Shown: positions 4,313-42,270 of the stretch, in pieces
How the letters are laid out: every line of letters starts with the position of its first letter
Numbering within the stretch: the stretch's first letter is position 1
NCBI GenBank assembly: GCA_001823165.1
Contig: MHTT01000008.1
Span: forward strand, 1 to 48,342
Reading direction: 5' to 3'
Length of the DNA stretch: 48,342 nt
Source: Candidatus Wildermuthbacteria bacterium RIFCSPHIGHO2_01_FULL_49_22b
Lineage (GTDB): Bacteria; Patescibacteriota; Minisyncoccia; Minisyncoccales; UBA10102
Made by a program: the position numbers and the translations under genes
Notes under the pieces: model-generated
Databases searched by the model: none
What the model was told of the DNA's origin: nothing
What the model saw: only the letters and a program-made list of their open reading frames with translations

Positions 4313-4338
4313 CTATCCCCACCTAAATCGGATTTAGG
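4298..4338. repeat. REP-like palindrome doublet (family C) immediately upstream of the RayT-like gene
   Basis: ctaaatCCGatttag (4298-4312) and cctaaatCGGatttagg (4322-4338). Each is a 7-bp-arm perfect palindrome, and the two differ only in the central base (opposite orientations). The first copy contains the TAG stop and the last codons (LNPI*) of the giant protein. Confidence 0.85.
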
Positions 4339-4382
4339 ATATAGGGGAAACAGAGTCAGTAGATTAGAATATAATATAAAGC

Positions 4383-5099
4383 ATGCCAAGAACAAAACCA
4401 GAAAAGGGAAAAATCTACCATATTTTCAACCGTGGCGTAGAAAAGCGGAACATCTTTATATCCGAAGGAGATCGCTGGAGATTTTTGCAGGGGATGTATT
4501 TGTTTAATAATGAAGATTCCACCACAAATCTTCTCTATCGTCTTGAGCAAAGAAAGGGCAAGATGCATTTTGGCATCCTGCGAGATTATATGCAGCGAGA
4601 AGGCGTTAAGCGCAAGCCCTTGGTACGCATTATGGCAGATTGCCTTAAGCATAATCACTTTCATTTTAGCATTGAAGAAACTCAAGAAAACGGCATTTCC
4701 CGTTTTATGCAAAAGCTGGGTATTGGATATACAAAATATTTTAATAAAAAATATGAGCGCGTAGGACCGCTGTTTCAAGGAAAGTTTAAACTGGTAGAGA
4801 TACAAAGCGATGCGCAGCTTATGTATCTTATTGCCTATATTAATGCGATTAACCCCGGCCAAGAGTTAGAGCCAGAACTAAAATCAGTAGCGCAAGATCC
4901 AGAGCAAATCCTTGAGTTTATTCAACATTACCCATGGAGTACTCATTTGGAGTATTTGGGCAAAAGAGATTCTATTATTATAGATAAAGGTGTTGCGGGA
5001 GAATTATTTGGTACCCCAATTGCTTACCGAAAGTTTGTAGAAGATATTGTAAAAGGCAAAAAAAGTTTTGGTTTGTCAAAGAAAGATTTTCTTGAGTAG
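4383..5099 (+). CDS. IS200/IS605-like Y1 (HUH) transposase of the REP-associated RayT type (COG1943-like)
   Basis: YHIFNRGVEKRNIF N-terminus. HUH motif in CLKHNHFHFSI. GPLFQGKFK and the LIAYINAINP Tyr helix. HYPWSTHLEY tail. Flanked on both sides by the same palindrome doublets. Confidence 0.8.
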   Translation: MPRTKPEKGKIYHIFNRGVEKRNIFISEGDRWRFLQGMYLFNNEDSTTNLLYRLEQRKGKMHFGILRDYMQREGVKRKPLVRIMADCLKHNHFHFSIEETQENGISRFMQKLGIGYTKYFNKKYERVGPLFQGKFKLVEIQSDAQLMYLIAYINAINPGQELEPELKSVAQDPEQILEFIQHYPWSTHLEYLGKRDSIIIDKGVAGELFGTPIAYRKFVEDIVKGKKSFGLSKKDFLE

Positions 5100-5101
5100 T
5101 T

Positions 5102-5138
5102 CCTAAATCCGATTTAGTTTTACTAAATCGGATTTAGG
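5102..5138. repeat. REP-like palindrome doublet (family C) immediately downstream of the RayT-like gene
   Basis: cctaaatCCGatttag (5102-5117) and ctaaatCGGatttagg (5123-5138), in the same CCG-then-CGG order as the upstream doublet. Confidence 0.85.
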
Positions 5139-8482: not shown

Positions 8483-8845
8483 ATGAGAGTACACAATATG
8501 ATAGGAGAGAGAGGGGAGGAGATTGCGCGCCAGTTTTTGGAGAACAAAGGATATACAATTATTGAGTGCAATTACAGGACAAAGAGAGCAGAAATTGATA
8601 TCATTGCAAAACATAAAAATAAACTAGTGTTTGTGGAGGTGCGAACAAAGCACCGCGAACAATACGGAACCCCAGAAGAAACTATTGATTATAAAAAACG
8701 CATGAGATTGAAAAAGAATGCCGCAGCTTATGTCCATCGAAAGAAATATTATGGGCCTTTTCGCATAGACGCCGTATGTCTGGTACTAGATGAGAACGCG
8801 GGGCTCCAGCGGATTAACCACTATGAAAACATTGTGGAAAACTAG
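8483..8845 (+). CDS. yraN: YraN-family (UPF0102) putative endonuclease
   Basis: GERGEEIARQFLENKGYTIIECNYRTKRAEIDIIAK...VFVEVRT...IDAV pattern. ATG 8498 is an alternative start. Confidence 0.85.
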   Translation: MRVHNMIGERGEEIARQFLENKGYTIIECNYRTKRAEIDIIAKHKNKLVFVEVRTKHREQYGTPEETIDYKKRMRLKKNAAAYVHRKKYYGPFRIDAVCLVLDENAGLQRINHYENIVEN

Positions 8846-8905
8846 GCGAGACCAAGGATTCCTTGGTCTCGCCTAAGAGCTAAAACTAAGGAGCTCATGG
8901 GAACA
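8762..8905 (+). repeat. 144-bp direct repeat, left copy (yraN 3' end, hairpin, and start codon of the next ORF)
   Basis: Identical to 10847-10990 except one mismatch (8790 t versus 10875 c) by my alignment. Contains the 13-bp-stem hairpin ggcgagaccaagg-att-ccttggtctcgcc (8845-8873). Confidence 0.9.
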
Positions 8906-10257: not shown

Positions 10258-10773
10258 ATGACTTCTCTCAAGAAGGGCGGGGAAAAGGAGAATAAAAATA
10301 ATCCCCAGTACCTGCCCACCGATTCAATGAAAAATAATATGAACAAGTTTATCTACAGGCCCATTAAGTTTAATCGGATAACCCAGATTTTCGGAGAGAA
10401 CAAAACAGATTACTCCAAACTTGGTATGCTCGGACATAATGGTCTTGATATGGCTACCTGGAATGGGACACCAATATATCATTCTGGTGACTATATGGGT
10501 TATATGAAGACAGAAATTGATGCAATGGGTGGCATAGGAGTAGATATCTATTCTAATACTCCCCAGATTGATGGAAAACGTATCAAATTGCGTTATTGGC
10601 ACTTAAAGCAAGTTGTAGGGTGGGATGGAAAAGAAGTGCGACCAGGACAACTTATAGGTTTTGCTGATAATACTGGATTTTCAACAGGAGACCATTTATA
10701 CTTTGATTTAAAATGTGTAGATGAGAATGACAAAACATCACGAACAATACGGAAGCCCGGAAGAAACCATTGA
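10258..10773 (+). CDS. M23/LytM-family peptidase-like protein (endolysin-like), 3' end running into the yraN-like fragment
   Basis: GHNGLDM (HxxxD) and NTGFSTGDHLYFDL. The usual HxH reads HLY, so it is possibly degenerate. The C-terminus is read out of the yraN-homologous DNA in another frame. Confidence 0.55.
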   Translation: MTSLKKGGEKENKNNPQYLPTDSMKNNMNKFIYRPIKFNRITQIFGENKTDYSKLGMLGHNGLDMATWNGTPIYHSGDYMGYMKTEIDAMGGIGVDIYSNTPQIDGKRIKLRYWHLKQVVGWDGKEVRPGQLIGFADNTGFSTGDHLYFDLKCVDENDKTSRTIRKPGRNH

Positions 10774-10930
10774 TTATGAAAAACGCATGAGACTGCAGCG
10801 AAACGCAAGAGCGTATATTCACCGAACAAAGTACCGCGGCCCATACCGCATAGACGCCGTATGTCTGGTACTAGACGAGAACGCGGGGCTCCAGCGGATT
10901 AACCACTATGAAAACATTGTGGAAAACTAG
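10722..10930 (+). pseudogene. Displaced, duplicated 3' fragment of a yraN-like gene
   Basis: It encodes ...HEQYGSPEETIDYEKRMRLQRNARAYIHRTKYRGPYRIDAVCLVLDENAGLQRINHYENIVEN, parallel to residues ~53-120 of the intact YraN. The N-terminal catalytic part is absent. Confidence 0.8.
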
Positions 10931-10990
10931 GCGAGACCAAGGATTCCTTGGTCTCGCCTAAGAGCTAAAACTAAGGAGCTCATGGGAACA
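10847..10990 (+). repeat. 144-bp direct repeat, right copy
   Basis: See 8762-8905. The hairpin copy is at 10930-10958. Confidence 0.9.
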
Positions 10991-15562: not shown

Positions 15563-15586
15563 ATGTGTGAAACCTGGTTTCACACA
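15563..15586. repeat. Family D palindrome, copy 1, 11 nt after the stop of the TPR protein
   Basis: atgtgtgaaacctggtttcacaca is identical to 42247-42270. The arms tgtgtgaaacc/ggtttcacaca are perfect reverse complements. Confidence 0.9.
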
Positions 15587-18997: not shown

Positions 18998-19085
18998 GAA
19001 ATCCTAAATCCGATTTAGAGAAATCCTAGATTTAGTAAGAAATCCTAAATCCGATTTAGTAAGAAATCCTAAATCCGATTTAGAA
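18988..19085 (+). repeat. Tandem array of family C REP-like palindromes in the rpoB-rpoC spacer
   Basis: cctaaatccgatttag at 19003-19018, 19044-19059 and 19068-19083, with a degenerate copy at 19024-19035, at ~24-nt period (aagaaatcctaaatccgatttagt). All are in the CCG orientation. The rpoB TAA stop (18995-18997) lies in a partial unit aaatcctaag. Confidence 0.85.
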
Positions 19086-19125: not shown

Positions 19126-22100
19126 ATGAGGGTAACCGATTTAGAATCCATTCGAATAAAGCTCGCCTCCCCGGACAACGTTTTGGCGTGGTCTCACGGG
19201 GAGGTTACGAAGCCCGAAACCATCAACTACCGCACCCAGCGCGCGGAAAAGGAAGGTTTGTTTGACGAGCGCATCTTTGGTCCGGAAAAGGACTATGAGT
19301 GCTATTGCGGCAAGTACCGCAAGATACGCTACAAGGGCGTGGTGTGCGACCGGTGCCAAGTGGAGGTGACCAAATCCTCGGTGCGCCGCGAGCGCATGGG
19401 CCACATCAAGCTGGCCTCGCCCTGCTCGCACATCTGGTTTCTGCGGGGGGTGCCCTCGCGCATGGGCCTTGTTTTGGATATTCCTTCTGGCGCCTTGGAG
19501 CGCGTCATCTACTTTGCCTCGTATATCATCACCAAGGTGAACGAGGAGGCAAAAGCCAAGGCCGCAGACGAGATTGAGGCGGAATTCAAGCAGAAATTCA
19601 AGAACAAGGGAGAAGAAGAAAAGCAGCAGCTCAAGGGAGCGCGCGACCGGGCCAGAGAAGAGCTCAAGCTCCTCCAGCCCTTGAAAATCCTTTCTGAAGC
19701 AGAGTATCAGAACCTTTCTTTAAAGTACGGCCAGGCCTTTGAGGCGGGAACCGGAGCTGGAACCCTAAGAAAAATATTTCAAGAAGTGGATTTAAAGAAG
19801 CTTCTCAATCAGGTAAAAAAAGACCTGGAAAAGGCGAGTTTGGTGACGAAACGAAAACTCTTGGTCAGGATGCGACTGCTGCAGGGAATGCTGGAGTCCT
19901 CTATTCGCCCCGAATGGATGTTTTTCACCCACTTGCCTGTTCTTCCTCCCGACCTGCGTCCCATGGTGCAGCTGGACGGGGGAAGGTACGCTTCCTCTGA
20001 CTTAAACGACCTGTACCGCAGGGTGATTAACCGCAACAACCGCTTAAAGTATCTGCTGGAAATTGAGGCCCCGGACGTGATTGTGCGCAACGAGAAGCGC
20101 ATGCTGCAGGAAGCCGTGGACGCCCTGATTGACAACTCTATGAGAAAAGGACAACTCACGTCAGCTACCACGGGAGGAAGGCGCCTGTTAAAGTCCCTAG
20201 CGGACATGCTCAAGGGAAAGCAGGGACGGTTCCGCCAGAACCTGCTGGGAAAGCGTGTGGACTACTCGGGGAGGTCGGTCATTGTGGTGGGTCCCACCAT
20301 GAGTTTGAAGAACGTGGGACTGCCAAAGCGCATGGCCCTGGAGCTGTTTAAGCCCTTTGTGATTCAAAAAATCCTTGAACGGGAGTTTGCCTTCAATGTC
20401 CGGGGAGCAAATCGGCTTATTGAACAGGAAACCAACGATGTATGGGCGATTTTGGAAGAGGTTGTCGCAGAAAGAATGGTGCTCTTGAACCGCGCGCCGA
20501 CTCTTCACCGCTTGGGCATCCAGGCCTTTTACCCGCAGCTCGTGGAAGGGGAGGCCATCCGCCTGCATCCTCTGGTGTGCTCCGCCTTCAACGCGGACTT
20601 TGACGGAGACCAGATGGCCGTCCATGTGCCTCTGTCCAAAGAGGCCCAGGAAGAGGCCAGAAACCTGATGCTGTCGGCAAACAATCTGTTAAAGCCCGCC
20701 ACGGGAATCCCGGTGGCCGGTCCCCGCCAGGATATGGTGCTCGGCTGCTATTACTTGACCGGCGCAGACAAAAAACCGCAGGAACAAAAGAAGAGTTTTT
20801 CGTCTCCGCAGGAGGTCCTGCTTGCCATGGAAGCCGGGGCTGTCGGGTTGCGGGACGCCATACGGGTGCGTATGCCAAAGACCTGGGGAGGGGACGGTAT
20901 TTCTCTTGCGGAAACCACGCCAGGCCGCCTCATTTTCAACGAGTCCTTGCCTTCCGGGTTCCCGTTTGTCAACGAACAGATTACCGCAAAAAGAATGGAA
21001 CGCCTGGTGGCGGATATTATTAAGCATTATCCTGCCGAGGAGGCCCCCGGCATGTTAGACAAAATCAAGGAGCTGGGATTTGAATATGCGACCAAGTCCG
21101 GAATCACTTGGGGCATGGATGATCTGACGGTCCCGGAAGAAAAGAAAGAGCTGCTGGGGCAAGCTGCGCAAGAGATTGAAGTCATTGATTCCCATTTTGC
21201 AAGGGGATTGCTTTCCAAGGAGGAGAGGTCGGCTAAGGTCATTGAAATCTGGCAGCGGGTGAAGTCCGCGGTGGAAAAACTCGTGCCGAAATCCCTGCCT
21301 GAAGGCGGTTCGGTCTTTTCCATTATTGACTCCGGGGCAAGGGGTTCTTGGTCCCAGCCCGTGCAGATGGCGGGCATGAAGGGCTTGGTGATTAACCCGG
21401 CAGGCCGCATTATTGAGCTGCCCGTCAAGAGTTCTTTCAAGGAAGGGTTTGACGTACTGGAGTACTTCATTTCCACGCACGGGGCAAGAAAGGGAACCGC
21501 GGACACCGCCTTGAGAACGTCCACGGCAGGGTATCTTACCCGCCGTTTGATTGACGTTGCCCATGACGTGCTGGTAACCTTGCATGACTGCAAAGACACG
21601 GCGGGCATCGTCATTACCAAGGCCGTGGCCCAAGAGCTGGGCCAGAACATTGCTTTAAAGCTTGCTGGCAGGATTTCCCTGCAGGACCTGAAAGGAATTG
21701 TGAAGAAAGGAGGGTACATTGATTGGGACAAGGCCCAGGCAATTGGAGAAGACGAGAAGGTAAAGGAGGTGTGGGTACGCTCGCCTTTGTCGTGCCGCGC
21801 GGTGCGGGGAGTGTGCCAGCTGTGCTACGGATGGGATATGGGCAGGAACAGGGAGATTGAGCTGGGAGCGGCTGTTGGCATCGTGGCGGCCCAATCCATT
21901 GGAGAGCCGGGAACGCAGCTTACCATGAGAACATTCCACACGGGAGGGGTTGCTGGAGGAGGCGACATTACCCAGGGACTTCCCCGCGTAGAGGAAATCT
22001 TTGAAGGAAGGGTTCCGAGCGGCAAGGCCGTCTTATCAGAGCTTGCAGGGAAAGTGGTTGAGATAACTCCAGAGGGCGCGGTGAAGATACAAGCAACAAT

Positions 22101-22716
22101 TGACAATTTACAATTGACAATTGACAAGAAGAATAGTCGTCAAAAGTCAAAAGTCAAGAGTCAAGAGTCAATCGTGGAATACCAGATTCCCGCAAAGCGG
22201 GCTTTGTGGGTAAAGCTTGGAGACCAGGTCGTGAAAGGGCAGCAACTGTGCGAAGGGCACCCGGACCTTCAAGAGATATTTTCCCTCACCGGAAAGGACG
22301 GCGCGGCGTCTTATATCGTCAGAGAAGTGCAAAGTATTTACACTTCCCAGGGCGCTTCCATCCACGACAAGCATATTGAGACCATAGCGCGCCAGATGTT
22401 TTCCCGCATCAGAATCAAGGATGCGGGAGACGCCGCCTTCACGGAAGGGGAAGTGGTAGAAAGGGCCGTATTTCTGGAAGAAAACGCCAAGGTCAAGAAG
22501 CTTTCAAAGAGAGGAGCCGTGGGCTCCCAGCTTCTCTTGGGCATTTCCAAAATTGCCCTCACCACGGACAGCTTTCTGTCCTCGGCCTCGTTCCAGGAAA
22601 CCTCCCGCGTTTTGATTAAGGCCTCTCTGGAAGGCAAGGAAGACCGCCTGCGGGGTCTGAAAGAAAACGTGATTATCGGGAAGCTTATTCCTGCGGGAAC
22701 CGGGTTCAAGAAATAA
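19126..22716 (+). CDS. rpoC: DNA-directed RNA polymerase subunit beta-prime
   Basis: Zn-finger CYCGKYRKIRYKGVVCDRCQVEV, catalytic NADFDGDQMAVHVPLS, trigger-loop region GEPGTQLTMRTFHTGG and C-terminal ASFQETSRVL. Confidence 0.97.
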   Translation: MRVTDLESIRIKLASPDNVLAWSHGEVTKPETINYRTQRAEKEGLFDERIFGPEKDYECYCGKYRKIRYKGVVCDRCQVEVTKSSVRRERMGHIKLASPCSHIWFLRGVPSRMGLVLDIPSGALERVIYFASYIITKVNEEAKAKAADEIEAEFKQKFKNKGEEEKQQLKGARDRAREELKLLQPLKILSEAEYQNLSLKYGQAFEAGTGAGTLRKIFQEVDLKKLLNQVKKDLEKASLVTKRKLLVRMRLLQGMLESSIRPEWMFFTHLPVLPPDLRPMVQLDGGRYASSDLNDLYRRVINRNNRLKYLLEIEAPDVIVRNEKRMLQEAVDALIDNSMRKGQLTSATTGGRRLLKSLADMLKGKQGRFRQNLLGKRVDYSGRSVIVVGPTMSLKNVGLPKRMALELFKPFVIQKILEREFAFNVRGANRLIEQETNDVWAILEEVVAERMVLLNRAPTLHRLGIQAFYPQLVEGEAIRLHPLVCSAFNADFDGDQMAVHVPLSKEAQEEARNLMLSANNLLKPATGIPVAGPRQDMVLGCYYLTGADKKPQEQKKSFSSPQEVLLAMEAGAVGLRDAIRVRMPKTWGGDGISLAETTPGRLIFNESLPSGFPFVNEQITAKRMERLVADIIKHYPAEEAPGMLDKIKELGFEYATKSGITWGMDDLTVPEEKKELLGQAAQEIEVIDSHFARGLLSKEERSAKVIEIWQRVKSAVEKLVPKSLPEGGSVFSIIDSGARGSWSQPVQMAGMKGLVINPAGRIIELPVKSSFKEGFDVLEYFISTHGARKGTADTALRTSTAGYLTRRLIDVAHDVLVTLHDCKDTAGIVITKAVAQELGQNIALKLAGRISLQDLKGIVKKGGYIDWDKAQAIGEDEKVKEVWVRSPLSCRAVRGVCQLCYGWDMGRNREIELGAAVGIVAAQSIGEPGTQLTMRTFHTGGVAGGGDITQGLPRVEEIFEGRVPSGKAVLSELAGKVVEITPEGAVKIQATIDNLQLTIDKKNSRQKSKVKSQESIVEYQIPAKRALWVKLGDQVVKGQQLCEGHPDLQEIFSLTGKDGAASYIVREVQSIYTSQGASIHDKHIETIARQMFSRIRIKDAGDAAFTEGEVVERAVFLEENAKVKKLSKRGAVGSQLLLGISKIALTTDSFLSSASFQETSRVLIKASLEGKEDRLRGLKENVIIGKLIPAGTGFKK
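22097..22172 (+). repeat. Family A heptamer-array hairpin element translated within rpoC
   Basis: caa TTGACAA TTTACAA TTGACAA TTGACAA gaagaat agtcgtc AAAAGTC AAAAGTC AAGAGTC AAGAGTC aat, encoding TIDNLQLTIDKKNSRQKSKVKSQES. Homologous to 36963-37036 and to the reverse complement of 34589-34662. Confidence 0.85.
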
Positions 22717-26169: not shown

Positions 26170-26292
26170 AGATTTTACTGCGTAAAAGAAATTACAAATT
26201 CAAAGCACCAAATTCCAAACGCTTTTGGTTTGTGATTTGTGGTTTTGGTCATTGTAATTTGTTTGTAGTTTGGAATTTGTAATTTGTGATTT
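26170..26292 (-). repeat. Family F intercistronic element (ssb-rpsR spacer)
   Basis: The reverse complement is colinear with the groES-groEL spacer. It has a CA-rich tract (aaatcacaaa...), then gcgtttggaatttggtgct(t/g)tgaatttgtaatttcttttacg(c/a)agtaaaa directly before the ATG. Inverted termini are aaattacaaattc.../...tttggaatttgtaattt. Confidence 0.8.
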
Positions 26293-27290: not shown

Positions 27291-28088
27291 ATGATGGGGG
27301 ATATGAAAAATATCAAAGACATCACAGAACAAGAGTTGGGGGCGCTTCGGGTTATTACTTTTGATATTGACGGCGTTATCATTCCTACTGGCACCCAGCT
27401 TCAGGAAAACGCGGATGGGACGGAGCTACACATGAAATCAAAACAGCTCTCAAGGCAGTTTGTCGAGAACTTAAAAGAGCTGAAAAAGCATCTCAAGTTA
27501 AACTTCTCCTCTGGCAGGAATATTCTGTATCTTAAAAGTTTGGTGAATGAAATTTTTGATGAGGATATATTTTTGCAGGCAGAGAACGGCAATATCAGCT
27601 GGTTTGAGGGAAAGCTCACCCATTCCAGCCATTCTGCAGATTACTTCCAGAAGCTGAAAATCATCCGGGAGCGGATAAAAGGGATGATTGCTGGGGGAGA
27701 CAAAAGAATCAGGGGCTTTGAGCCCAAGATGTTCATTCTTACCTCTCATTCTGACCAGATGGAAGACATACCGAATCTGGTACAGGAGGTGGATCCCGAA
27801 GGAGAATTATACTGCCTGTGGACGAATGAAGGTTATGATATAGGGAGTAAAAGCATGAGTAAGGGAAAGGGTATTAAAAAACTTGCGCGGCATCTCGGCA
27901 TTAACCCTAAAGAGATTATGACTACAGGGAATAATTATAACGATGCTGAAATGCTGAAGGTGGGCACGGGAGTCACGGTGGAACCTGTCAGGGTGGAGGC
28001 GCAATATTTTATTGAACACCAACCAGATGAACTCGGTGGAGAGTTGCTTGCCGAATTTCTCCTGGACTATTATAGGAAACGCGCTTGA
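27291..28088 (+). CDS. HAD-superfamily (Cof/SPP-like, type IIB) phosphatase
   Basis: ITFDIDGVIIP (DxD motif), SGRN, and KGKGIKKLARHLGI...TTGNNYNDAEML. The 5' part of the 420-aa track ORF (26826-27290) is antisense to rpsF and was discarded. Confidence 0.75.
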   Translation: MMGDMKNIKDITEQELGALRVITFDIDGVIIPTGTQLQENADGTELHMKSKQLSRQFVENLKELKKHLKLNFSSGRNILYLKSLVNEIFDEDIFLQAENGNISWFEGKLTHSSHSADYFQKLKIIRERIKGMIAGGDKRIRGFEPKMFILTSHSDQMEDIPNLVQEVDPEGELYCLWTNEGYDIGSKSMSKGKGIKKLARHLGINPKEIMTTGNNYNDAEMLKVGTGVTVEPVRVEAQYFIEHQPDELGGELLAEFLLDYYRKRA

Positions 28089-28101
28089 GGCCTTGACCAT
28101 C

Positions 28102-28137
28102 ATAACACTAATTTGACGGTCGTCTCTCTAATGTTAT
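28102..28137. repeat. Left ~35-bp terminal inverted repeat flanking the PaaX/Cas2-like gene
   Basis: ataacactaatttGACGGTCGTCTCTctaatgttat. Its reverse complement aligns with 28704-28738 (13-bp perfect core plus the outer ataaca/tgttat arms). Confidence 0.8.
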
Positions 28138-28146
28138 TTTGGGGAT

Positions 28147-28707
28147 ATGCGCTTGATGAGACAAAATTCTCTTCCGTACAAAATTCTTAGCCACCTAGAA
28201 GATATCGGAGAAGATATGCTTGATTTTATCGTGAACCCTCCAAAAACCATGTATCAAGCTGTGAAAAGATTGGATCGGGAACAGCGCAAGCAAAGGATAC
28301 AATATGCATTGTTTCGATTATGGAAACGAGGGTTAATAGAGAGTACTATGCGCAATAATAAAAAATATATTGCGATTAGTAAAAAAGGAAGAATTCAAAT
28401 TGCCCGATATGTTATAGAAAAAAAGAAAAAGATGCCTTGGGACGGAAAATGGCGCATTGTGATTTTTGATATCCGGGAGGCAGCAAGAAGAGATAGAAAT
28501 TTTTTTCGGCGACAGCTTCAATGGTTTAGTTTTATAGAATTGCAAAAAAGTGTATGGGTTATTCCTTGGGATGTGACGAAGGAATTCCGCGATTTTCTTT
28601 CTGCATGCAAAGCTGAATTAACAGGCGATATGCGTTTTCTTGTTGTGGAGAAGATTGATACTGATTACGATTTAAAAAAACGTTTTGGTTTGGTTGAAAC
28701 AAAATAA
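28147..28707 (+). CDS. PaaX-family-like regulator (wHTH plus Cas2-like ferredoxin-fold segment)
   Basis: 186 aa. WDGKWRIVIFDIREAARRDRNFFRRQLQWFSFIELQKSVWVIPWD matches the PaaX/Cas2-type motif (W.G.W..v.fdIpe..R..R...r..L...gF..lq.SvWv.P). The N-terminal part looks wHTH-like. Confidence 0.6.
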   Translation: MRLMRQNSLPYKILSHLEDIGEDMLDFIVNPPKTMYQAVKRLDREQRKQRIQYALFRLWKRGLIESTMRNNKKYIAISKKGRIQIARYVIEKKKKMPWDGKWRIVIFDIREAARRDRNFFRRQLQWFSFIELQKSVWVIPWDVTKEFRDFLSACKAELTGDMRFLVVEKIDTDYDLKKRFGLVETK

Positions 28708-28738
28708 CACAAAAGAGACGACCGTCGCATTAATGTTA
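28704..28738. repeat. Right ~35-bp terminal inverted repeat flanking the PaaX/Cas2-like gene
   Basis: ataacacaaaAGAGACGACCGTCgcattaatgtta. It overlaps the TAA of the PaaX-like gene (28705-28707) and the TAA of the convergent trpS (28736-28738). Confidence 0.8.
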
Positions 28739-29719
28739 AGATTGGAGGAGGCCGATTTTTTCCCGGACGTCTTGCATGGTGGCTTTTGCAATGGAGGAAG
28801 CCCGGTTTTGTCCCTGGCGCAGGATTTCTTTTACGTACAGCTCCCGCGAATCCAGCTCCCTTTTCTTTTTCCTGAGAGGTTCCAATTTTTGAGTGAGCAG
28901 GGCGGCAAGGGATTTCTTTAAAAAGGCGTAGTCCTTTTTCTGGAACTTCTTTTCCGCCTTCTGCATGGGTTCTTTTGAGAATAAAGAATAGATGGTGAGA
29001 AGGTTGGAAATGCCGGGCTTTTTCTTTTCGTCAAACTTTATCTCTTTGCCCGTATCCGTGGTTGCCGCCATGATTTTCTTTTTCATGCTCTCTGGCTCCT
29101 CAAAAATGCCAAGATAGGAGTCGGGTTTGTCTGACTTGGACATCTTCTTTCTTGGCTCTTTCAACGACATGATTCTTGCTCCTTCCTTTTTGAGAATGGT
29201 CTTTGGCTCAACAAATGTTTCCCCGAATCTTGAATTGAACTTTTTAGCCAGAGTTCTTGTGAGCTCCAGATGCTGGGCCTGGTCTTGCCCGACCGGGACC
29301 GCCTGGGTCTTGTACAAGAGGATGTCTGAAGCCATAAGCACGGGGTAGTTGAAGAGTCCCGCGAAGACCTCCGTCTTTTGCTTTTTTGCCTTGTCTTTGA
29401 ACTGCGTCATTCGCTCCAGTTCCCCCAGGGGAGTCATGGTATTGAGAATCCAGGCAAGTTCGGTGTGTTCTGGCACTTGAGATTGTACGAACAAGGCGCA
29501 TTTCTCGGGGCTAATGCCCGTGGCCAGGAGTTCAATGACCTTGTTTCTTGTCGCTAGCTCCAGCTCTTTTGGGTTCTGGGGAACGGTAATGGCGTGCAAG
29601 TCAACCACGCAAAAGAAGCATTCGTGCTGTTTTTGCAACTCTAACCACTGGGAGACAGCTCCCAGGTAGTTTCCAATGTGCATTGGGCCTGTTGGTTGAA
29701 TCCCGCTGAATATACGCAT
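28736..29719 (-). CDS. trpS: Tryptophan--tRNA ligase
   Basis: SGIQPTGPMHIGNYLGA (HIGH-type) and KMSKS. Class Ic size of 327 aa. Confidence 0.95.
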   Translation of the reverse strand: MRIFSGIQPTGPMHIGNYLGAVSQWLELQKQHECFFCVVDLHAITVPQNPKELELATRNKVIELLATGISPEKCALFVQSQVPEHTELAWILNTMTPLGELERMTQFKDKAKKQKTEVFAGLFNYPVLMASDILLYKTQAVPVGQDQAQHLELTRTLAKKFNSRFGETFVEPKTILKKEGARIMSLKEPRKKMSKSDKPDSYLGIFEEPESMKKKIMAATTDTGKEIKFDEKKKPGISNLLTIYSLFSKEPMQKAEKKFQKKDYAFLKKSLAALLTQKLEPLRKKKRELDSRELYVKEILRQGQNRASSIAKATMQDVREKIGLLQS

Positions 29720-29788
29720 ACGCTTAGTGTAAATCTAAATCTTGAAAATACAACGTCTTTGCCCACGCCCGTTCGCCCATGCCCGCGG

Positions 29789-31471
29789 TTATACCTCAAT
29801 AATCACGGGGAGCACCATGGGGCGTCTGTTGGTTTTCTTTTGCAGGAAATCCGACACCTCCTTTTTCACCTGGTCTCTCACATATACCCAGTTCACGGCC
29901 CCTCCGGTTCCAGAGGCCCTGTCTACGATTCCCACCACCCTTCTTCTCACGTCTCGCAAAAGGTCTTTTGATTCCCGCAGGTAAATGAATCCCCTGGAGA
30001 TGATGTCCGGGGAGCCCCGCACGGTTCCTTTTTGGCGGTCCACCACGGCGATAATCACGAACATGCCGTCTTTGGCCAGGTTCTGGCGATCCCGGAGCAC
30101 AATTTCTCCCACGTCTCCCACGCCCAGACCGTCCACCATGATAAGGTTTGAGGGAACGGTCTTTTTATCAATGGACACCTGGTTTTTCGTGAGGTTTATG
30201 ATGTTTCCGTTTTCCGGGATGACAATGTTTTTTTCCGCAACACCCTCTTTTTGCGCCAGGTCCGCATGGGCATACATCATGGAAAACTGGCCGTGAATTG
30301 GCATGAAAAACTTGGGTTTCAGGTATGAGATGAGCTCTTTGAGCTCGTCTTCGTTGGCGTGTCCTGAAGCATGAATGTCCATCATTTTGTAGTGAAAGAC
30401 CAAGGCGCCCTGGCGGTAGAGATGGTCCTTCACAAACTGCACGGTCCGTTCGTTTCCCGGAATAACCGAAGAAGAGAAGATAACAGAATCCCCCCTCTGA
30501 ATGCGCAGGGTCTTGTGCTCTTTGTTGATGATGCGCATTAAGACCGCATTTTCTTCCCCCTGGGCGCCCGTGGCAAGAATGGTCACCTTATGGTCGGGGT
30601 ATTTTAACACCTCGCTGGTGGAGAGCAGGGTGCCCTTCTTTGCTTTTATGTACCCCAGCTGCTTTGCGATTTCCACGTTGGTTTTCATGGAGTATCCTTC
30701 AATGGCGACTCTCCTGCCGTGCTTTTCAGACAGGGTGATAATTTGCTGGATGCGGTTCAAAAGGGAACCGAAGGTTGCCGTGATAATCCTGCCCTGGGCC
30801 TGTTTGAAGATTTCATCCAGGTTCTCCATGATTACTTTTTCAGACAGAGAGTGGTTGGGCTGTTCGGCGTTCGTGGAATCGGACATTAAGAGGAGTACGC
30901 CTTCTTTGCCGAATCTCTTTAACCTCTCATAGTCGGTCGGAGGGTCATTGACGGGGGAGTCGTCGAACTTGAAGTCCGATGTGTGAAGGATTTTTCCCAC
31001 CGAGGTTTCAATGACGAACCCAAAGTTGTCATTGATGTTGTGGTTCTGGCGGAAGGGCTCTATGGAGAAAGGACCTATGCGCAGCAGCTTGCCGTCTTCA
31101 ATTGGGGCTATCTTGAGCTTGGGCTGACGCTGAAAGTCCTCCTGGCGTTTTAAGATGATGCCTTTGGAAAGAGGCGAGGCCCACAGGGGAGGACTGCCGA
31201 GTTTTCCCACCAGGTACGGGATTGCCCCCACGTGGTCTAAGTGTCCGTGGGTGATGAGAATACCCGCGATGTCCCGCTCTCTTCCCTTTAGGAAAGTGAT
31301 GTTGGGGATGATGTAGTCAATGCCGGGCATGTCTTCTTCTGGCATGCGAAGGCCCATGTCAACAATCAAAAGTTTGCCCTGGTCTTCAATGACGAGCATG
31401 TTTTTGCCAACCTCACCTAATCCCCCCAAGGGGATTATCTTAACTGTTTGTTGAGTACGTTGTTGGGGCAT
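29789..31471 (-). CDS. rnj: Ribonuclease J
   Basis: Metallo-beta-lactamase HGHLDHVGA, beta-CASP region and C-terminal domain, 560 aa. The N-terminus VKIIPLGGLGEVGKNM is typical of RNase J. Confidence 0.92.
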   Translation of the reverse strand: MPQQRTQQTVKIIPLGGLGEVGKNMLVIEDQGKLLIVDMGLRMPEEDMPGIDYIIPNITFLKGRERDIAGILITHGHLDHVGAIPYLVGKLGSPPLWASPLSKGIILKRQEDFQRQPKLKIAPIEDGKLLRIGPFSIEPFRQNHNINDNFGFVIETSVGKILHTSDFKFDDSPVNDPPTDYERLKRFGKEGVLLLMSDSTNAEQPNHSLSEKVIMENLDEIFKQAQGRIITATFGSLLNRIQQIITLSEKHGRRVAIEGYSMKTNVEIAKQLGYIKAKKGTLLSTSEVLKYPDHKVTILATGAQGEENAVLMRIINKEHKTLRIQRGDSVIFSSSVIPGNERTVQFVKDHLYRQGALVFHYKMMDIHASGHANEDELKELISYLKPKFFMPIHGQFSMMYAHADLAQKEGVAEKNIVIPENGNIINLTKNQVSIDKKTVPSNLIMVDGLGVGDVGEIVLRDRQNLAKDGMFVIIAVVDRQKGTVRGSPDIISRGFIYLRESKDLLRDVRRRVVGIVDRASGTGGAVNWVYVRDQVKKEVSDFLQKKTNRRPMVLPVIIEV

Positions 31472-34382: not shown

Positions 34383-35788
34383 TAAGATAGCGTACCCCGC
34401 TTTTGAGATTTGGTCAATCCGAGGACTTGTTCCCTGAGCTTTCGATGGTAAGAAATGGCAAAGCGGTGCGCTTCGTCCCTGATATGGAGAAACAGATTCT
34501 CAAGGGGCCTCGGCAGGTCTCTCAAAAGCACTGGTCTTGATTTGCCGGGAAAGAACAGCTCGTTTTGTTTTTTTGCCAGTGCCACCATGATTGACTTTTG
34601 ACCTTTGACTTTTGACGATTGACTTTTTTTGCTGTCAATTGTCAATTGTGAATTGCCAATTGTTAGCTCCCGCAGCGCAGAGAGCGCTGCGGTGAGCTGC
34701 CCCTTTCCTCCGTCAATGACCATGAGCTGGGGATAGGGCCATTCGGGGTGCCGGAGACGCCTTGAGAGAAGTTCTTCCATCATAGCATAATCATTTGATT
34801 TACCAGATATGCGAATCTTGTACTTTCTATAGGATTCCTTGAGAGGGGCCCCTTTAAGAAAGGTAACCTGGGAACCTGTTGCTTGTTTCCCTTGGATGTT
34901 GGAGATGTCATAGGCCTCCATGCGGGAGATTCGTTTTCTTGTTTCAAAGAGCTTCTGGAGTTCCTTTTCTATGAGGTTCCAGTTGGTGGAGGGCGCGGTC
35001 TCGCGGGAAAGGAGCCGCGCATGAGAAACAATGCGCTCTAAAGCGAGAAATTGATCTCTCAATCCTGCTGCTTTTTCAAAACCCTGATTCTTTGCGGCCT
35101 CGTTCATTTCTTTTTTCAGTTGTCTGAAAACCGAGGTTCTCTTTCCTTTGAGGACGGCGGCAAGTTTGCGCAGGTTCTTTTTGTATGTTTTCTCATCTGG
35201 GTCGGGTCCCGGGCAGAGATTGAGCTGGCACCAGGAGCAGGGAAGGGAGCCGTGCTTTTTTGCCGTGTAATAGGGGAATACCCTCCGAAGCAATCTCAAT
35301 ACCCGCCTGATTGCCTTTCCTTCCGTGAAAGGGCCAATATAGTTTGTATCTTGTATTTTGTATCTTGTATTTTGTATTTTTTTCTCCTTTTTCATACCAG
35401 ATACCAGATACGAGCTACAAGATACAAGGCGGGGCTGATGCGTCAAAAAGATTCTCGGAAGTTTATCTTTTGTTATTCCAACAAAAAAATACCCCTTGTC
35501 GTCTTTCCACATGACGTTGTATTTGGGCTGCAGCTTCTTTATGAGCTGCGACTCCAGCAACAAGGCATCAATTTCAGATTGAGTTTCAAGATATCCTACC
35601 CTGGTTACTTGGGATGTGAAAAGATTGTCCCGGTAGCTGGGCTGGGCAAAGTGGATTCTGACCCGGTCTTTGATATTCCCCGCCTTTCCTATATACAGCA
35701 CCGCTTTGGGAGAAGCCAAAGCATACACCCCGGGTGCTTTTGGAAGGGTTGAGAGTTTTGATTTGGGAACATACCGAAACTTTTCCAT
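34382..35788 (-). CDS. uvrC: Excinuclease ABC subunit C, short form (no C-terminal HhH2 domain), carrying two in-frame repeat insertions
   Basis: GIY-YIG (GVYALASPKAVLYIGKAGNIKDRV), UVR domain (EMNEAAKNQGFEKAAGLRDQFLALERI) and endonuclease V-like domain ending IRDEAHRFAISYHRKLR. ATG 35788 fits the canonical N-terminus, but the frame stays open to TTG 36091. Confidence 0.9.
   Translation of the reverse strand: MEKFRYVPKSKLSTLPKAPGVYALASPKAVLYIGKAGNIKDRVRIHFAQPSYRDNLFTSQVTRVGYLETQSEIDALLLESQLIKKLQPKYNVMWKDDKGYFFVGITKDKLPRIFLTHQPRLVSCSSYLVSGMKKEKKIQNTRYKIQDTNYIGPFTEGKAIRRVLRLLRRVFPYYTAKKHGSLPCSWCQLNLCPGPDPDEKTYKKNLRKLAAVLKGKRTSVFRQLKKEMNEAAKNQGFEKAAGLRDQFLALERIVSHARLLSRETAPSTNWNLIEKELQKLFETRKRISRMEAYDISNIQGKQATGSQVTFLKGAPLKESYRKYKIRISGKSNDYAMMEELLSRRLRHPEWPYPQLMVIDGGKGQLTAALSALRELTIGNSQLTIDSKKSQSSKVKGQKSIMVALAKKQNELFFPGKSRPVLLRDLPRPLENLFLHIRDEAHRFAISYHRKLREQVLGLTKSQKRGTLS
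34589..34662 (-). repeat. Family A heptamer-array hairpin element translated within uvrC
   Basis: The coding strand reads caa TTGGCAA TTCACAA TTGACAA TTGACAG caaaaaa agtcaat cGTCAAA aGTCAAA gGTCAAA aGTCAAT cat, encoding TIGNSQLTIDSKKSQSSKVKGQKS. Confidence 0.85.
35344..35428. repeat. Family G heptamer-array hairpin element translated within uvrC
   Basis: The plus strand reads TTGTATC TTGTATT TTGTATC TTGTATT TTGTATT tttttctcctttttc ATACCAG ATACCAG ATACGAG CTACAAG ATACAAG. ttgtat and atacaa are reverse complements. It encodes the extra segment ...LVSCSSYLVSGMKKEKKIQNTRYKIQDTNY.... Confidence 0.8.
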
Positions 35789-36229: not shown

Positions 36230-39157
36230 ATGGCACAGGATTTCATTAAAATCAGGGGAGCACGGGTTCACAACCTCAAGAACATTGACGTTGATATCCC
36301 CAAGGGCAAGCTTGTGGTGATTACCGGGCTTTCCGGGTCAGGGAAAAGCTCTCTTGCCTTTGATACTCTGTATGCTGAAGGACAGAGAAGGTACGTTGAG
36401 AGTTTGTCCGCATACGCGCGGCAATTCCTGGGCGTCATGCAAAAGCCCGATGTGGATTCCATTGAGGGCATTAGTCCTGCCATTGCCATTGACCAGAGAA
36501 AGGGAGCTCACAACCCTCGTTCTACCGTTGGGACCATTACGGAGATATATGACTATCTCCGTCTTTTGTTTGCAAGGATAGGAGTTCCGCACTGTCCCAA
36601 CTGCGGCAGGGAAGTCAAGCGCCAGTCGGTTTCCTCCATTGCAGACCAGGTGCAGAAACTTCCCGCCAAAGACGAGATTGCCATTCTTGGTCCTGTAATC
36701 AGGGAGAAAAAAGGGGAGCACCGGGGAGTTTTAGAAGAAATCCAGCGTTCCGGGTTTGTGAGGGCTCGCATTGACGGCATTGTGGAGCGCGTTGAAGAGG
36801 CCCTGGAAAAGGAGTTGGACCGCAAAAAGAAGCATTCCATTGAAGTGCTCGTGGACCGGCTAACCATAGACAAGGATCTGGACCGCCCCCGCCTCATCGA
36901 TTCTTTAGAGACCGCCTTAAAGCTTGGGAAAGGGCTGGTGATTGTGCGGGCACAGTCACCAACAATTGACAATTCACAATTAACAATTAGCAAGAAGAAT
37001 CGTCGTCAAAAGTCAACAGTCAATAGTCAAAAGTCAGGAGAAGACCTGGTCTTCAGCGAGCGCTTTGCCTGCGAGCAATGCAGTATTTCCCTGCCAGAGA
37101 TTGAGCCGAGAATGTTTTCTTTCAACTCTCCCTTTGGGGCGTGTCCTGCGTGCCAGGGATTAGGAGAAAAGCTGGAGGTTGATCCCAAACTGGTGATTCC
37201 CAACCCCCGGCTTTCCCTTGCCGAGGGCGCCATTTTCCCCTGGGCGCACGCTTCCCATAAGATAGGACGCCAGGGATTCTTTTGGTGGAAACTGGAAGAC
37301 CTGGCGAAAGAAAGGAAGTTTTCTTTGAATACTCCAGTAGAGGAGCTTTCTCCTAAAGTCATTAGCCTGGTCTTGCAAGGAGATAGAGGGTTTGCCGCCC
37401 GCAGAAGCGGGCGAGCCTCACCCGCCTCTGAAGAGGCGAGGTGGGAAGGAGTGATTCCCTGGCTGGAACGAAGATACCATGAGACCGACTCTGAATACGC
37501 CAGGGAAGAGATTGAGCAGTATATGATAGAGCGCTTGTGCGAAATGTGCCAGGGAAAGAGGTTGAAACCCGAGGTGGTGGCGGTAACCGTGGGGGCAAAG
37601 TCCATTCACGGGGTCGTAAACCTGCAGCTCAACCGCGTCAAAGAGTTTTTTGGCAAACTCTTCTTGAAAGAGCATGAGAAAAAGATAGCAAGCCCCATTG
37701 TAAAAGAGATTGTGAATCGCCTTCAGTTTTTAATTGATGTGGGCTTGGAGTATCTCACCCTGGCGAGAAAAGCCGCGACCCTGTCAGGAGGAGAAGAACA
37801 GAGAATACGGCTCGCCACCCAGATTGGCTCAAAGCTTACTGGGGTCTTGTACATATTGGACGAGCCCTCTGTCGGTTTGCATGCCAGAGACCAGCATCGC
37901 CTCATTGCGACCTTGCAGCAATTGCGCTCTTTGGGCAATACCATTGTAGTAGTAGAGCATGACCCCCAAACCATACGGTCAGCTGACTGGGTGGTGGATA
38001 TTGGCCCTGGAGCAGGAAAGCACGGGGGCCGTGTCACTTTTACCGGAACGCCAAAACAGCTGCTCAAGTCGCGCACACTTACCGGAGATTACCTAGCGGG
38101 GCGCAGAACTGTTCAGATAAGCAAAGTAGGGTCAGACCCTACTCGGGTGAGTAGGGTCAGACCCTACTCACAGCTGATTGTCCAGGGGGCAACGCACAAC
38201 AACTTAAAGAACATTGACGTTGCAATACCGCTGGAAAGGATGGTGTGCGTGACCGGGGTTTCAGGGTCTGGCAAAAGTTCTCTGGTCAGCGATATTGTGG
38301 CAAAAGCCCTGCTGCAGAAGTTCTACAGGGCAAAGGAAGAACCGGGAGAGCATAAGGCAATTTTAGGCACGGAGCATCTTAACAAGGTGGCGCTGGTGGA
38401 CCAGTCGCCCATTGGCAGAACTCCGCGTTCCAACCCCGCAACCTACACAGGGTCCTTTTCTGTCATACGGGATTTGTTTGCTTTATGCAAAGAGGCCAGG
38501 GTGCGGGGCTACAAGCCGGGAAGATTTTCTTTTAATGTAAAGGGAGGAAGATGCGAGTCCTGCGAGGGCCAGGGGCTAAAAAAGATTGAGATGTACTTTT
38601 TACCGGACGTGTATGTGGAGTGCGAGGAATGCCAGGGACAGCGATACATGAAAGAGGTCCTGGAGGTGGAATACCGAGGCAAAAACATTGCCCAGGTTCT
38701 GGCAATGACCGTGGAGGAAGCCCTGGCGTTTTTCAGAAACATTCCCGCCCTGACAGCGAAGTTGAAGACCTTAAACGACGTGGGACTCTCGTATGTGGAG
38801 CTGGGACAGCCCGCCCCCTCCCTTTCTGGGGGAGAGGCCCAGCGAGTAAAGCTGGCAACCGAGCTTGCAAAGAAAGCAACAGGAAAGACCCTGTACATTC
38901 TAGACGAGCCAACCACGGGTCTTCATTTTGACGACGTGAAAAAACTGCTTCAGGTGTTGGGGGAACTGACGGACAAGGGAAACACGGTATTGATTATTGA
39001 GCACAATCTTGATGTGGTGCGCAATTCGGACTGGATTATTGACCTGGGACCAGAGGGAGGAGAAAAAGGGGGGAAATTGGTCGCAGAGGGAACCCCAAGA
39101 GATGTTGCCAAAATAAAAAAGAGCTATACGGGGCAGTACTTGCGTAAGTTCAGCTGA
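36230..39157 (+). CDS. uvrA: Excinuclease ABC subunit A, carrying two in-frame repeat insertions
   Basis: Two ABC modules ([51 protein letters not shown]), zinc modules (CPNCG, CEQC...[12 protein letters not shown]...CEECQGQRY), 975 aa. Confidence 0.97.
36963..37036 (+). repeat. Family A heptamer-array hairpin element translated within uvrA
   Basis: caa TTGACAA TTCACAA TTAACAA TTAGCAA gaagaat cgtcgtc AAAAGTC AACAGTC AATAGTC AAAAGTC a, encoding [25 protein letters not shown]. Confidence 0.85.
38125..38168. repeat. Family B palindromic doublet translated within uvrA
   Basis: aGTAGGGTCaGACCCTACtcgggtgaGTAGGGTCaGACCCTACt, encoding [17 protein letters not shown]. These are the same two peptide readings as in dprA but in swapped order. 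Confidence 0.85.
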
Positions 39158-39816: not shown

Positions 39817-41586
<1,770 letters not shown>

Positions 41587-42246: not shown

Positions 42247-42270
42247 ATGTGTGAAACCTGGTTTCACACA
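42247..42270. repeat. Family D palindrome, copy 2, between the lemA stop and the htpX start
   Basis: atgtgtgaaacctggtttcacaca, identical to 15563-15586. Confidence 0.9.

Follow-up and report, generated by a model that had tools for sequence, protein, structure and literature searches.

Introduction

PaaX is the repressor of the phenylacetate operon and acts on palindromic operators, and its Cas2-like domain serves as a dimerisation module. In Cas1–Cas2 complexes, the Cas2 dimer lies along duplex DNA. Repressors which loop DNA between separate operators are represented by lambda cI, acting between OL and OR, and by the systems of gal (OE/OI) and lac (O1/O2/O3). To our knowledge, Patescibacteria (CPR, the candidate phyla radiation) have very few recognisable transcription factors, and we know of almost nothing on gene regulation in these organisms. 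Here, we describe a locus of Candidatus Wildermuthbacteria bacterium RIFCSPHIGHO2_01_FULL_49_22b (assembly GCA_001823165.1, contig MHTT01000008.1), in which a single gene for a short PaaX-like protein, called "mini-PaaX" in the following (28147..28707, + strand), stands between two matching blocks of 36 nt. The whole stretch of 48,342 nt that was analysed is referred to as the window, and coordinates are those of the window unless another locus is named. The same locus is present in assembly GCA_001823295.1 on contig MHUB01000024.1.

We consider it probable, at about 0.62, that the gene encodes an autoregulated PaaX-like repressor with the two blocks as its operators, a reading which is drawn from sequence comparison. 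The initial annotation had offered three readings of the blocks, namely operator sites of the encoded regulator, terminal inverted repeats (TIRs) of a mobile cassette, and the ends of an invertible or excisable segment. The first of these is now the best supported, by the symmetry of the sites, the overlap of one of them with a promoter-like element, a third copy of the site, and the recurrence of the arrangement in 69 of 77 loci of the same family.

Two Symmetric Blocks around a Single Gene

Repeat and pattern searches place the left block, the proposed operator O-up, at 28102..28137 and the right block, the proposed operator O-down, at 28704..28739; no strand is assigned to either. The left block is made up of ATAACA (28102-28107), the core GACGGTCGTC (28115-28124) and TGTTAT (28132-28137), with the centre of symmetry between 28119 and 28120. 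The corresponding parts of the right block are ATAACA (28704-28709), the core GACGACCGTC (28717-28726) and TGTTA(A) (28734-28739). Each block is a pseudo-palindrome of the form ATAACA, 7 nt, GACG GT CGTC, 7 nt, TGTTAT, and because of this internal symmetry the two blocks are also 74% identical when compared as direct repeats. Inverted blocks with a 13-bp core had been placed at 28102-28137 and 28704-28738 in the initial annotation. These coordinates hold, and the repeat search extends the inverted repeat to 43 nt (28099-28141 and 28700-28742, 84% complementary, 558 nt apart).

The pairing of the two blocks is specific within the window. The 13-mer GACGGTCGTCTCT has exactly two copies, one per strand, and no more appear with 2 mismatches allowed. 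The pattern ATAACAC-N15-30-TAATGTTA matches only at the two blocks, with 0 matches expected, and the full 36-nt architecture was recovered with up to 3 mismatches only at the same two places and 0 times in shuffled sequences. As a control, the best 42-nt match between upstream and downstream flank was determined for all 30 genes of the window. The mini-PaaX gene reached 35/42, the runner-up gene 26/42, and the median was 23.

The blocks enclose one ORF (open reading frame; 28147-28707, 186 aa), and the right block covers the stop codons of both this ORF and trpS, as the initial annotation had it. The ATG begins 9 nt past the end of the left block. The stop codon TAA (28705-28707) lies inside the left arm of the right block and the stop codon of the convergent trpS (TTA, 28736-28738, minus strand) inside its right arm, the 28-nt gap between the two stop codons being wholly occupied by the block. 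Comparison with the 75%-identical ortholog at locus L008 showed 31 of 36 positions conserved in the left block and, by direct reading, 36 of 40 in the right block. The arms and the core are kept and the spacers drift, a pattern which might be ascribed to purifying selection on arms and core.

The similarity between the two ends goes 13–15 nt further outward. By direct reading, the left outer flank GGCCTTGACCATC (28089..28101) is an inverted and gapped copy of the right outer flank AGATTGGAGGAGGCC (28739-28753). It matches the reverse complement of the latter at 11 of 14 positions with one gap, GAGGCC being shared, and the probability of such a match by chance was estimated as ~1e-3. The non-coding 13 nt past the stop codon of the HAD gene on the left mirror the last codons of trpS. 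This copy might go back to gene conversion or to an inverted duplication between the blocks. We also note that the HAD gene of the window stops two codons earlier than those of L204 and L211.

The Encoded Protein

In the mini-PaaX, a winged helix at the N-terminus is combined with a Cas2-like ferredoxin fold at the C-terminus. Database gene callers choose the second ATG at 28156, which gives a protein of 183 aa. The profile of the central Cas2-like domain of PaaX (PF20803) is matched with E = 2.2e-19 and 69.8 bits against a cutoff of 24. The NCBIfam model of PaaX (TIGR02277) gives 45.3 bits against a cutoff of 264.55 and is covered at positions 35-151 of 279. The Cas2 models also score below their cutoffs (TIGR01573, 19.3 vs. 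24.5; PF09827, 20.5 vs. 23.8), and a relative, P0010, passes the cas2 cutoff with 28.7 bits. In the N-terminal part PF07848 is not matched; weak matches to TrmB (E = 0.021) and to MarR/PadR winged helices were obtained. PaaX_C (PF08223) is absent, the 186-aa protein ending after the Cas2-like domain.

An AlphaFold2 model built on 21 homologs (pLDDT, the predicted local distance difference test, 82.7) has helices in residues 9-60 and a hairpin in 64-77, followed by a linker helix and then by a beta-alpha-beta-beta-alpha-beta domain, and its N-terminal helix-helix-helix-hairpin fold superposes on PaaX. The best matching folds of the PDB are E. coli PaaX (8a39, E = 7.6e-5), Rv0674 (3kfw) and 3l09, followed by Cas2 structures. 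Because the folds match those of PaaX and the protein ends after domain two, it is, as far as the predicted structure and the profiles tell, a PaaX truncated after the second domain. In the family alignment, all 16 invariant columns fall within residues 81-146, i.e., the Cas2-like domain and the end of the wing. They include the Cas2-type motifs WDxKWRIVxFDI, with the invariant Asp108, and LQKSV. The N-terminal domain is highly variable across the same alignment.

The context does not point to either parent family. No paa genes are found nearby, the neighbours being HAD, trpS, RNase J, rpsF, ssb and recA. The 48-kb window contains no CRISPR array-like repeats and the neighbours are unrelated, no profile search having been aimed at cas1. 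PADLOC returned only sub-threshold Cas2 matches and PHROGs nothing above threshold, and a second family member is absent from the window. The protein is therefore not a member of PaaX, as it lacks both the C-terminal domain and a paa context and scores far below the cutoff, nor of Cas2, given the sub-cutoff score and the lack of a CRISPR array. The assignment as a PaaX/Cas2-fold regulator in the initial annotation is borne out for PF20803 and for the PaaX fold, but the PaaX and Cas2 scores stay below the cutoffs, PF08223 is absent, and the N-terminal winged helix is seen in the model rather than in a PF07848 match. Neither the profile matches nor the family alignment revealed a HUH, DDE, serine or tyrosine recombinase motif in the protein; the alignment has no invariant His-x-His or Tyr, and PF01797 is not matched.

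Site Anatomy across the Family

At least 578 loci of the family are found in GTDB species representatives, nearly all labelled Patescibacteria, and at least 825 clusters are obtained at 50% identity (E <= 1e-30). The members examined carry no source name or the label "CRISPR-associated endonuclease Cas2". The comparison was made with 82 loci, i.e., the best 80 of the at least 578 together with L008 and the window. With a threshold of 28/42 or better, which no other gene of the window reaches, a matching pair of blocks was found up- and downstream of the gene in 69 of the 77 loci for which both flanks were available. Palindromes of the same build occur just up- and downstream of the gene, and elsewhere in the loci their frequency is only 0.014 per 135 nt. 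The centre of the upstream site lies at a median of 29.5 nt before the ATG, and that of the downstream site at a median of 24 nt after the stop codon. In the literature on PaaX and Cas2, on PaaX in Patescibacteria and on Cas2-like domains joined to a winged helix, no description of this arrangement was found, and the family-wide bracket appears to be undescribed.

The anatomy of the site was obtained from 117 blocks centred on their symmetry axes. Positions 2–4 from the centre are symmetric in 92–98% of blocks, with G at +3 (C at −3) in 99%. Positions 5–8 are symmetric in only 56–64%, and positions 9–12 are A or T in at least 88%. Positions 13–18 are again symmetric in 80–90%, with a sequence that varies by locus, and beyond position 20 both the symmetry and the identity within a pair drop to background. 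The commonest cores are ACGATCGT, GCGACCGC, GCCATGGC and ACGGTCGT. A recognition code that would link the winged helix to the arm sequence was sought and given up, the N-terminal domain being too divergent to read.

Such symmetry might also be that of a hairpin in RNA or single-stranded DNA, so that the blocks would be terminators, insulators, or a hairpin in the 5′-untranslated region bound by the Cas2-like protein. Many family blocks are perfect palindromes of 36–42 nt, that of L016 folding with −18 kcal/mol (z = −8.8). The positions are terminator-like, with the left block after the upstream gene and the right block after the stop codon, and RNase activity is reported for Cas2 and VapD homologs. 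Nevertheless, we regard hairpins as very unlikely. As single strands, the three sites of this genome fold no better than shuffles (z from −1.25 to +0.15), and it is only the arms and the core that are symmetric, not the spacers. Arm mismatches are G–T in 38 and A–C in 39 cases, and this equality indicates that neither strand is selected for wobble pairing. T-runs are missing, a terminator scan finds nothing at the blocks, and the region 27500-29900 has no Rfam match. The left block would also be untranscribed if the −10 element within it is used. Taken together, the results on symmetry, folding and mismatches fit a duplex site, presumably read by a symmetric protein, and not hairpins.

In 30 loci the two blocks are direct, in 16 they are inverted, and 10 loci are tied. 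The window is among the most clearly inverted loci, and L187, which has the same GACGGTCGTC core, is direct. As the blocks are more often direct than inverted across the family, they are probably not TIRs. Orientation is not related to the strand of the gene downstream (12/12 with direct and 5/6 with inverted blocks); this neighbour is co-directional (+ strand) in 40 loci and convergent (− strand) in another 40. It follows that the downstream site is not systematically the promoter operator of the next gene. A conserved partner gene was not found either, since the neighbours are diverse and the largest neighbour cluster covers 5 of the 82 loci. Several genomes hold 2–3 paralogs, and the paralogs of one genome carry different blocks, which argues against recent copies.

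Left Block and Putative Promoter

A promoter-like element was found by consensus match within and just past the left block (28113..28140, + strand). It consists of TTGACG (28113-28118), a 16-nt spacer in which TG occupies 28132-28133, and TATTTT (28135-28140), the latter two forming the extended −10 sequence TGtTATTTT. Only six nt (GGGGAT) separate the −10-like hexamer from the ATG at 28147. A start 7 nt after the −10 would coincide with the A of the ATG, and the message would then be leaderless. The same layout is seen in L008, where TTGACG, a spacer of 16 nt and TATCAT are followed by 6 nt and ATG. Since the left block overlaps the predicted −10, binding of the protein there would occlude its own promoter.

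The spacing between site centre and ATG has a sharp maximum at 26–30 nt across the family. A perfect TGnTATAAT followed by 6 nt and ATG is found, e.g., in L053, L059, L071, L073 and L074, and a −10-like hexamer lies 5–8 nt before the ATG in 56% of the family genes and in 30% of 263 neighbour genes. The combination of extended −10, 6 nt and ATG may add to the evidence for leaderless transcripts in these organisms.

A Third Site

Other copies of the block, the absence of which would have told against the proposals of the initial annotation, were searched for, and one was found in an assembly that also holds the window locus. The site, ATAACA-TAAAAGT-GACGGTCGTC-TTATTAT-TGTTAG, was first met in L125 in a metagenome scan. 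It lies at 1412-1447 of L218 (contig MHUB01000021.1), which belongs to assembly GCA_001823295.1 as does MHUB01000024.1, and about 2e-6 chance matches to its pattern are estimated per 1-Mb genome. The site stands between a gene for an extracytoplasmic function (ECF) sigma factor and a DUF5667 gene. Its left arm comprises the last codons and the stop of the ECF sigma gene, and its right arm abuts a conserved TAGTGTAATATTTT, 36 nt before the DUF5667 gene. Past DUF5667, a surface protein of over 1,100 aa is encoded.

The homologous locus of a TARA relative keeps TAGTGTAATATTTT, has a spacer of practically the same length (26 vs. 24 nt) and carries GCAATAGGCGGTATAGGTATATCCGA in place of the site. 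In the TARA sample of this site-free relative, both related trpS loci are empty. The site is thus absent where the cassette is absent, which suggests that it goes with the cassette. A homologous spacer of equal length without the site further suggests that the third site arose or decayed in place and was not inserted.

The scan pattern, AACA-N7-GACGGTCGTC-N7-TGTT, gave 115 matches, most of which are chance matches inside GC-rich coding DNA and were set aside. Only L103 and L187 combine a scan match with a family gene. No regulator could be assigned to the AT-rich solo palindromes of L100, L132, L142, L149, L153 and L170/L195 (beside dnaJ), and the matches beside serine recombinases in non-CPR DNA (L139, L156) look unrelated. 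Additional sites were seen in three loci of the family, upstream of glmS in L014 and upstream of a neighbouring gene in L027, and L103 has two sites upstream and two downstream.

An Accessory Unit between Convergent Genes

The insertion site is marked by trpS (28736..29719, − strand), which was assigned from the ORF list and a profile match and converges on the unit from the right. The left neighbour is a gene for a HAD-family hydrolase (27291..28088, + strand), its start being taken from the 265-aa gene call in L001, which carries a copy of this locus. Ten close trpS loci were compared, including the window and L008, with orthologs 79–84% identical. As the initial annotation had envisaged, junctions without the cassette do exist. 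HAD–trpS and phosphoglucomutase (PGM)–trpS junctions are empty in 8 of the 10 (L204, L206, L208, L210, L211, L212, L214, L216). In these loci HAD or PGM converges on trpS, the two stop codons share 4 nt (CTAG, TTAA, CTAA or TTAG), and no block is seen. The only filled loci of the set are the window, with HAD on the left, and L008, with PGM on the left, a 75% identical protein, an 83% identical trpS and both blocks. Homology between the window and L008 sets in precisely at 28102, which is the left block's outer edge.

The composition of the unit is also foreign to its surroundings. The cassette is the 637-nt stretch of lowest GC in the window (0.366 vs. 0.506 ± 0.042), and its GC content at third codon positions (GC3) is 0.32 as compared to 0.51–0.66 in the neighbours. 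From the empty sites and the foreign composition, it is evident that the site-gene-site unit of ~650 bp is an AT-rich accessory insertion between convergent stop codons and not a core gene. The trpS tree is star-like, so that the order of gain and loss is not resolved. The two filled loci are not grouped in it, and HAD or PGM as well as filled or empty states are scattered over it. A distant member (L051, 37% identical) with CCATGG-core blocks occupies the same PGM/trpS junction, and in L032 a family member lies between RNase J and trpS.

Several side observations concern this slot. In the empty sites of L206 and L211, trpS ends in CTAA(A)TGTTC, as CTAATGTTC or CTAAATGTTC, a 9-mer that recurs in L008 (990-998) as the outer arm of its right block. 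The word may mark a past loss, a favoured target or simply coding sequence of trpS common to these loci. Among the close relatives, either a HAD phosphatase or a PGM is encoded between rpsF and trpS, the PGM being of two divergent types. The choice between HAD and PGM varies independently of the cassette, which makes this position a local hot spot for the replacement of genes. Upstream of RNase J, L208 has a LAGLIDADG-type ORF (371-1048, weak PF14528 match) which is absent from the window.

These results raise the question of whether the unit is a selfish mobile cassette, recognised by its own protein in the way of the repetitive extragenic palindromes (REPs) and their associated tyrosine transposases (RAYTs). 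The blocks would then be the ends of the element, targeted by the winged helix, and the Cas2-like domain with its retained Asp would nick or cleave the invariant core and so favour insertion, excision or gene conversion. A clean indel with eight empty trpS orthologs, filled loci in two left contexts (HAD and PGM) that the trpS tree separates, the start of L008 homology at the block edge 28102, the low GC and GC3, and the presence of L051 at the same junction are all what such an element would leave. The 2–3 paralogs in several genomes, the highly diverse neighbours, the near-identity of pairs even at non-symmetric positions, the extension of the inverted repeat into the flanks and the invariance of the Cas2 motifs would agree with it as well, and the window itself contains what looks like a RAYT/REP system bracketed in the same manner. 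However, no target-site duplication is found family-wide (mean longest shared flank word 4.36 vs. 4.21 ± 0.13 in mismatched controls), nor at the window or L008 junctions when compared with the eight empty sites. In 17 of 17 contigs with an identical protein, the context and the orientation are the same. The paralogs of one genome carry different blocks and are no recent copies, the blocks are direct more often than inverted (L187 among them), and the third site replaces a sequence of equal length instead of being inserted. The blocks of this genome do not form hairpins, and the protein has no HUH, DDE, serine or tyrosine recombinase motif. On balance, we consider a selfish cassette unlikely. 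The TIR-bounded cassette of the initial annotation survives insofar as empty sites in 8 of 10 loci and foreign composition were found, and fails in that there is no duplication, no transposase and no second context, and that the blocks are unlikely to be TIRs.

A recombinase or transposase is encoded neither in the unit nor next to it. Given this together with the lack of duplication, the single context and the differing blocks of paralogs, mobility is treated here as evolutionary gain and loss and not as transposition. The whole unit has been gained and lost, presumably via horizontal transfer or recombination.

The other proposal, that of an invertible or excisable segment with the blocks as recombination sites for a recombinase of the host or the cassette, found hardly any footing. 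The inverted arrangement in the window, the asymmetric GT/AC at the centre and the extension of the repeat into the flanks would be in line with it. Nevertheless, no inversion variant was seen, since the orientation is the same in all 17 contigs, which come from several samples. The core is perfectly symmetric in most relatives (CGATCG, CCATGG) and so carries no orientation, and there is no recombinase in or next to the unit. Moreover, the empty sites do not keep the single hybrid block that site-specific excision would be expected to leave. We therefore give this proposal next to no credence.

Proposed Mechanism and Points against It

In the autoregulatory mechanism that we propose, each operator would be a composite site of 36–38 bp with two-fold symmetry, made up of lineage-specific arms, AT-rich spacers and a central core. 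One dimer would bind each site, its winged helices sitting on the arms, roughly three helical turns from one another, and its Cas2-like dimer covering the core. We infer this arrangement of one dimer per site from the parallel between the sites, with an invariant core and variable arms, and the protein, whose Cas2-like domain is conserved and whose winged helix varies. With the left site occupied, the leaderless promoter of the gene itself would be shut off. The right site might cooperate with the left one by looping the ~600 bp of DNA between them, or might act as a roadblock, which would shield the gene against the transcript coming from the convergent trpS. The third site would put the DUF5667 gene and the giant surface-protein gene under the same control.

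Several points weigh against such a repressor. A regulator needs no second operator beside its own stop codon, from which the centre of the downstream site is only 24 nt away in the median. The promoter is a consensus match, and shuffles of the region give as many such matches. Only one remote site is known, and the TARA relative without it is tied to the cassette-free population by co-occurrence in the sample and not by a binned genome. Positions 5–8 are asymmetric and yet 71–78% identical between the copies of one locus, and some block pairs are identical at 41–42 of 42 positions. Near-identity at non-symmetric positions suggests copying or gene conversion beyond selection for binding alone. 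Moreover, the family keeps the Cas2 motifs FDI, with the invariant Asp108, and LQKSV, which E. coli PaaX has presumably lost, and it may have nuclease activity.

In view of the pair identity, the flank copy, the shared trpS-end word and a downstream site with no apparent function, a reading based on a nuclease and gene conversion is kept as an unlikely one. In the particular form that a site-specific relative of Cas2 nicks the C-N4-G core and so drives gene conversion and the insertion or loss of the unit, we hold it to be improbable. The variable winged helices may, in that case, position a catalytically competent Cas2-like dimer on the core. Nicking of this kind would explain the block-bounded indel, the near-identical pairs, the inverted trpS codons and the shared CTAATGTTC.

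Other Repeats and Elements

Further repeats were found in the window and are recorded here as separate observations. A RAYT-like gene (4383-5099, 238 aa; PF01797, IS200-like Y1 transposase, E = 1.7e-5) lies in the segment 4298-5137 and has on either side two copies of the 15-bp palindrome CTAAATCSGATTTAG (4298/4323 and 5103/5123). CTAAATCSGATTTAG is found another three times, at 19004, 19045 and 19069 (19004-19083), just upstream of the gene at 19126-22716. With a GC of 0.367, the RAYT segment is as AT-rich as the mini-PaaX cassette, and 4298-5137 has the look of a REP/RAYT system of Patescibacteria.

A perfect palindrome of 24 nt, ATGTGTGAAACCTGGTTTCACACA, is present in two identical copies, at 15563-15586 and at 42247-42270, 26.7 kb apart, and may be the site of another regulator. 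A direct repeat of 261 nt with 87% identity (8645-8905 and 10730-10990) contains in each copy the 33-nt perfect palindrome TAGGCGAGACCAAGGATTCCTTGGTCTCGCCTA, at 8843 and 10928. An inverted repeat of 116 nt, 86% complementary, is found at 26173-26288 and 39831-39946, 13.5 kb apart, with one arm beside rpsR/ssb. Three related arrays of AACAATTGACAATT-type and GTCAAAA heptamers in both orientations lie at 22095-22177, 34585-34664 and 36960-37036.

One of the loci with a solo palindrome, L170, has a structured-looking segment (2360-2640) ending in a terminator-like hairpin, within an ORF-free gap of ~590 nt between an rmuC-like gene and dnaJ. ARAGORN finds no tRNA in it, and the solo perfect palindrome ATAACACTTTTCAGACGGTCGTCTGAAAAGTGTTAT lies beside it. 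The segment is possibly an RNA gene.

Significance

As most of the sampled family genes carry two candidate sites of their own, the family provides a ready list of protein/site pairs with diverse specificities. Scanning for each site could predict its regulon, which here would be the locus of ECF sigma, DUF5667 and the giant surface protein. The many annotations of "solo Cas2" in CPR genomes should not be counted as CRISPR remnants. The retention of the Cas2 motifs by a Cas2-like domain in a DNA-site-specific setting also bears on the relationship between Cas2 and PaaX. If nicking of the core were true, the unit would be a new kind of self-propagating element and would possibly connect, in evolutionary terms, Cas2 with the regulators of the PaaX type and with the duplication of repeats in CRISPR arrays.

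Comparison with Known Systems

With PaaX (8a39), Rv0674 and 3l09, the mini-PaaX shares the order of a winged helix followed by the Cas2-like PF20803 domain. In contrast to PaaX, it has 186 and not ~310 aa, is without the ligand-binding PaaX_C, and has no paa genes nearby. It also keeps FDI and LQKSV, and its proposed operators of 36–38 bp bracket its own gene. With Cas2, it shares the ferredoxin fold and sequence motifs, and some family members are annotated as such, whereas the mini-PaaX scores below the cutoff, is fused to a winged helix and has no CRISPR array within the 48 kb.

The arrangement resembles that of the looping repressors in that a repressor gene lies between two sites of its own, one of them over a promoter, which is a predicted one here. 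It differs in that the second site is only ~600 bp away, right after the stop codon, and over no demonstrable promoter. As in RAYT/REP systems, the gene is bracketed by copies of a palindrome, a further copy is found elsewhere and the segment is AT-rich. Unlike in those systems, there is no HUH-Y1 domain, the sites are of a duplex type and 36–38 bp long instead of short hairpins, and the one remote copy appears to have arisen in place. Finally, TIR transposons and miniature inverted-repeat transposable elements likewise have inverted blocks at the exact edges of an indel and a patchy distribution, but the unit described here has no transposase, target-site duplication or multiple copies, and the blocks of its relatives are mostly direct or symmetric.

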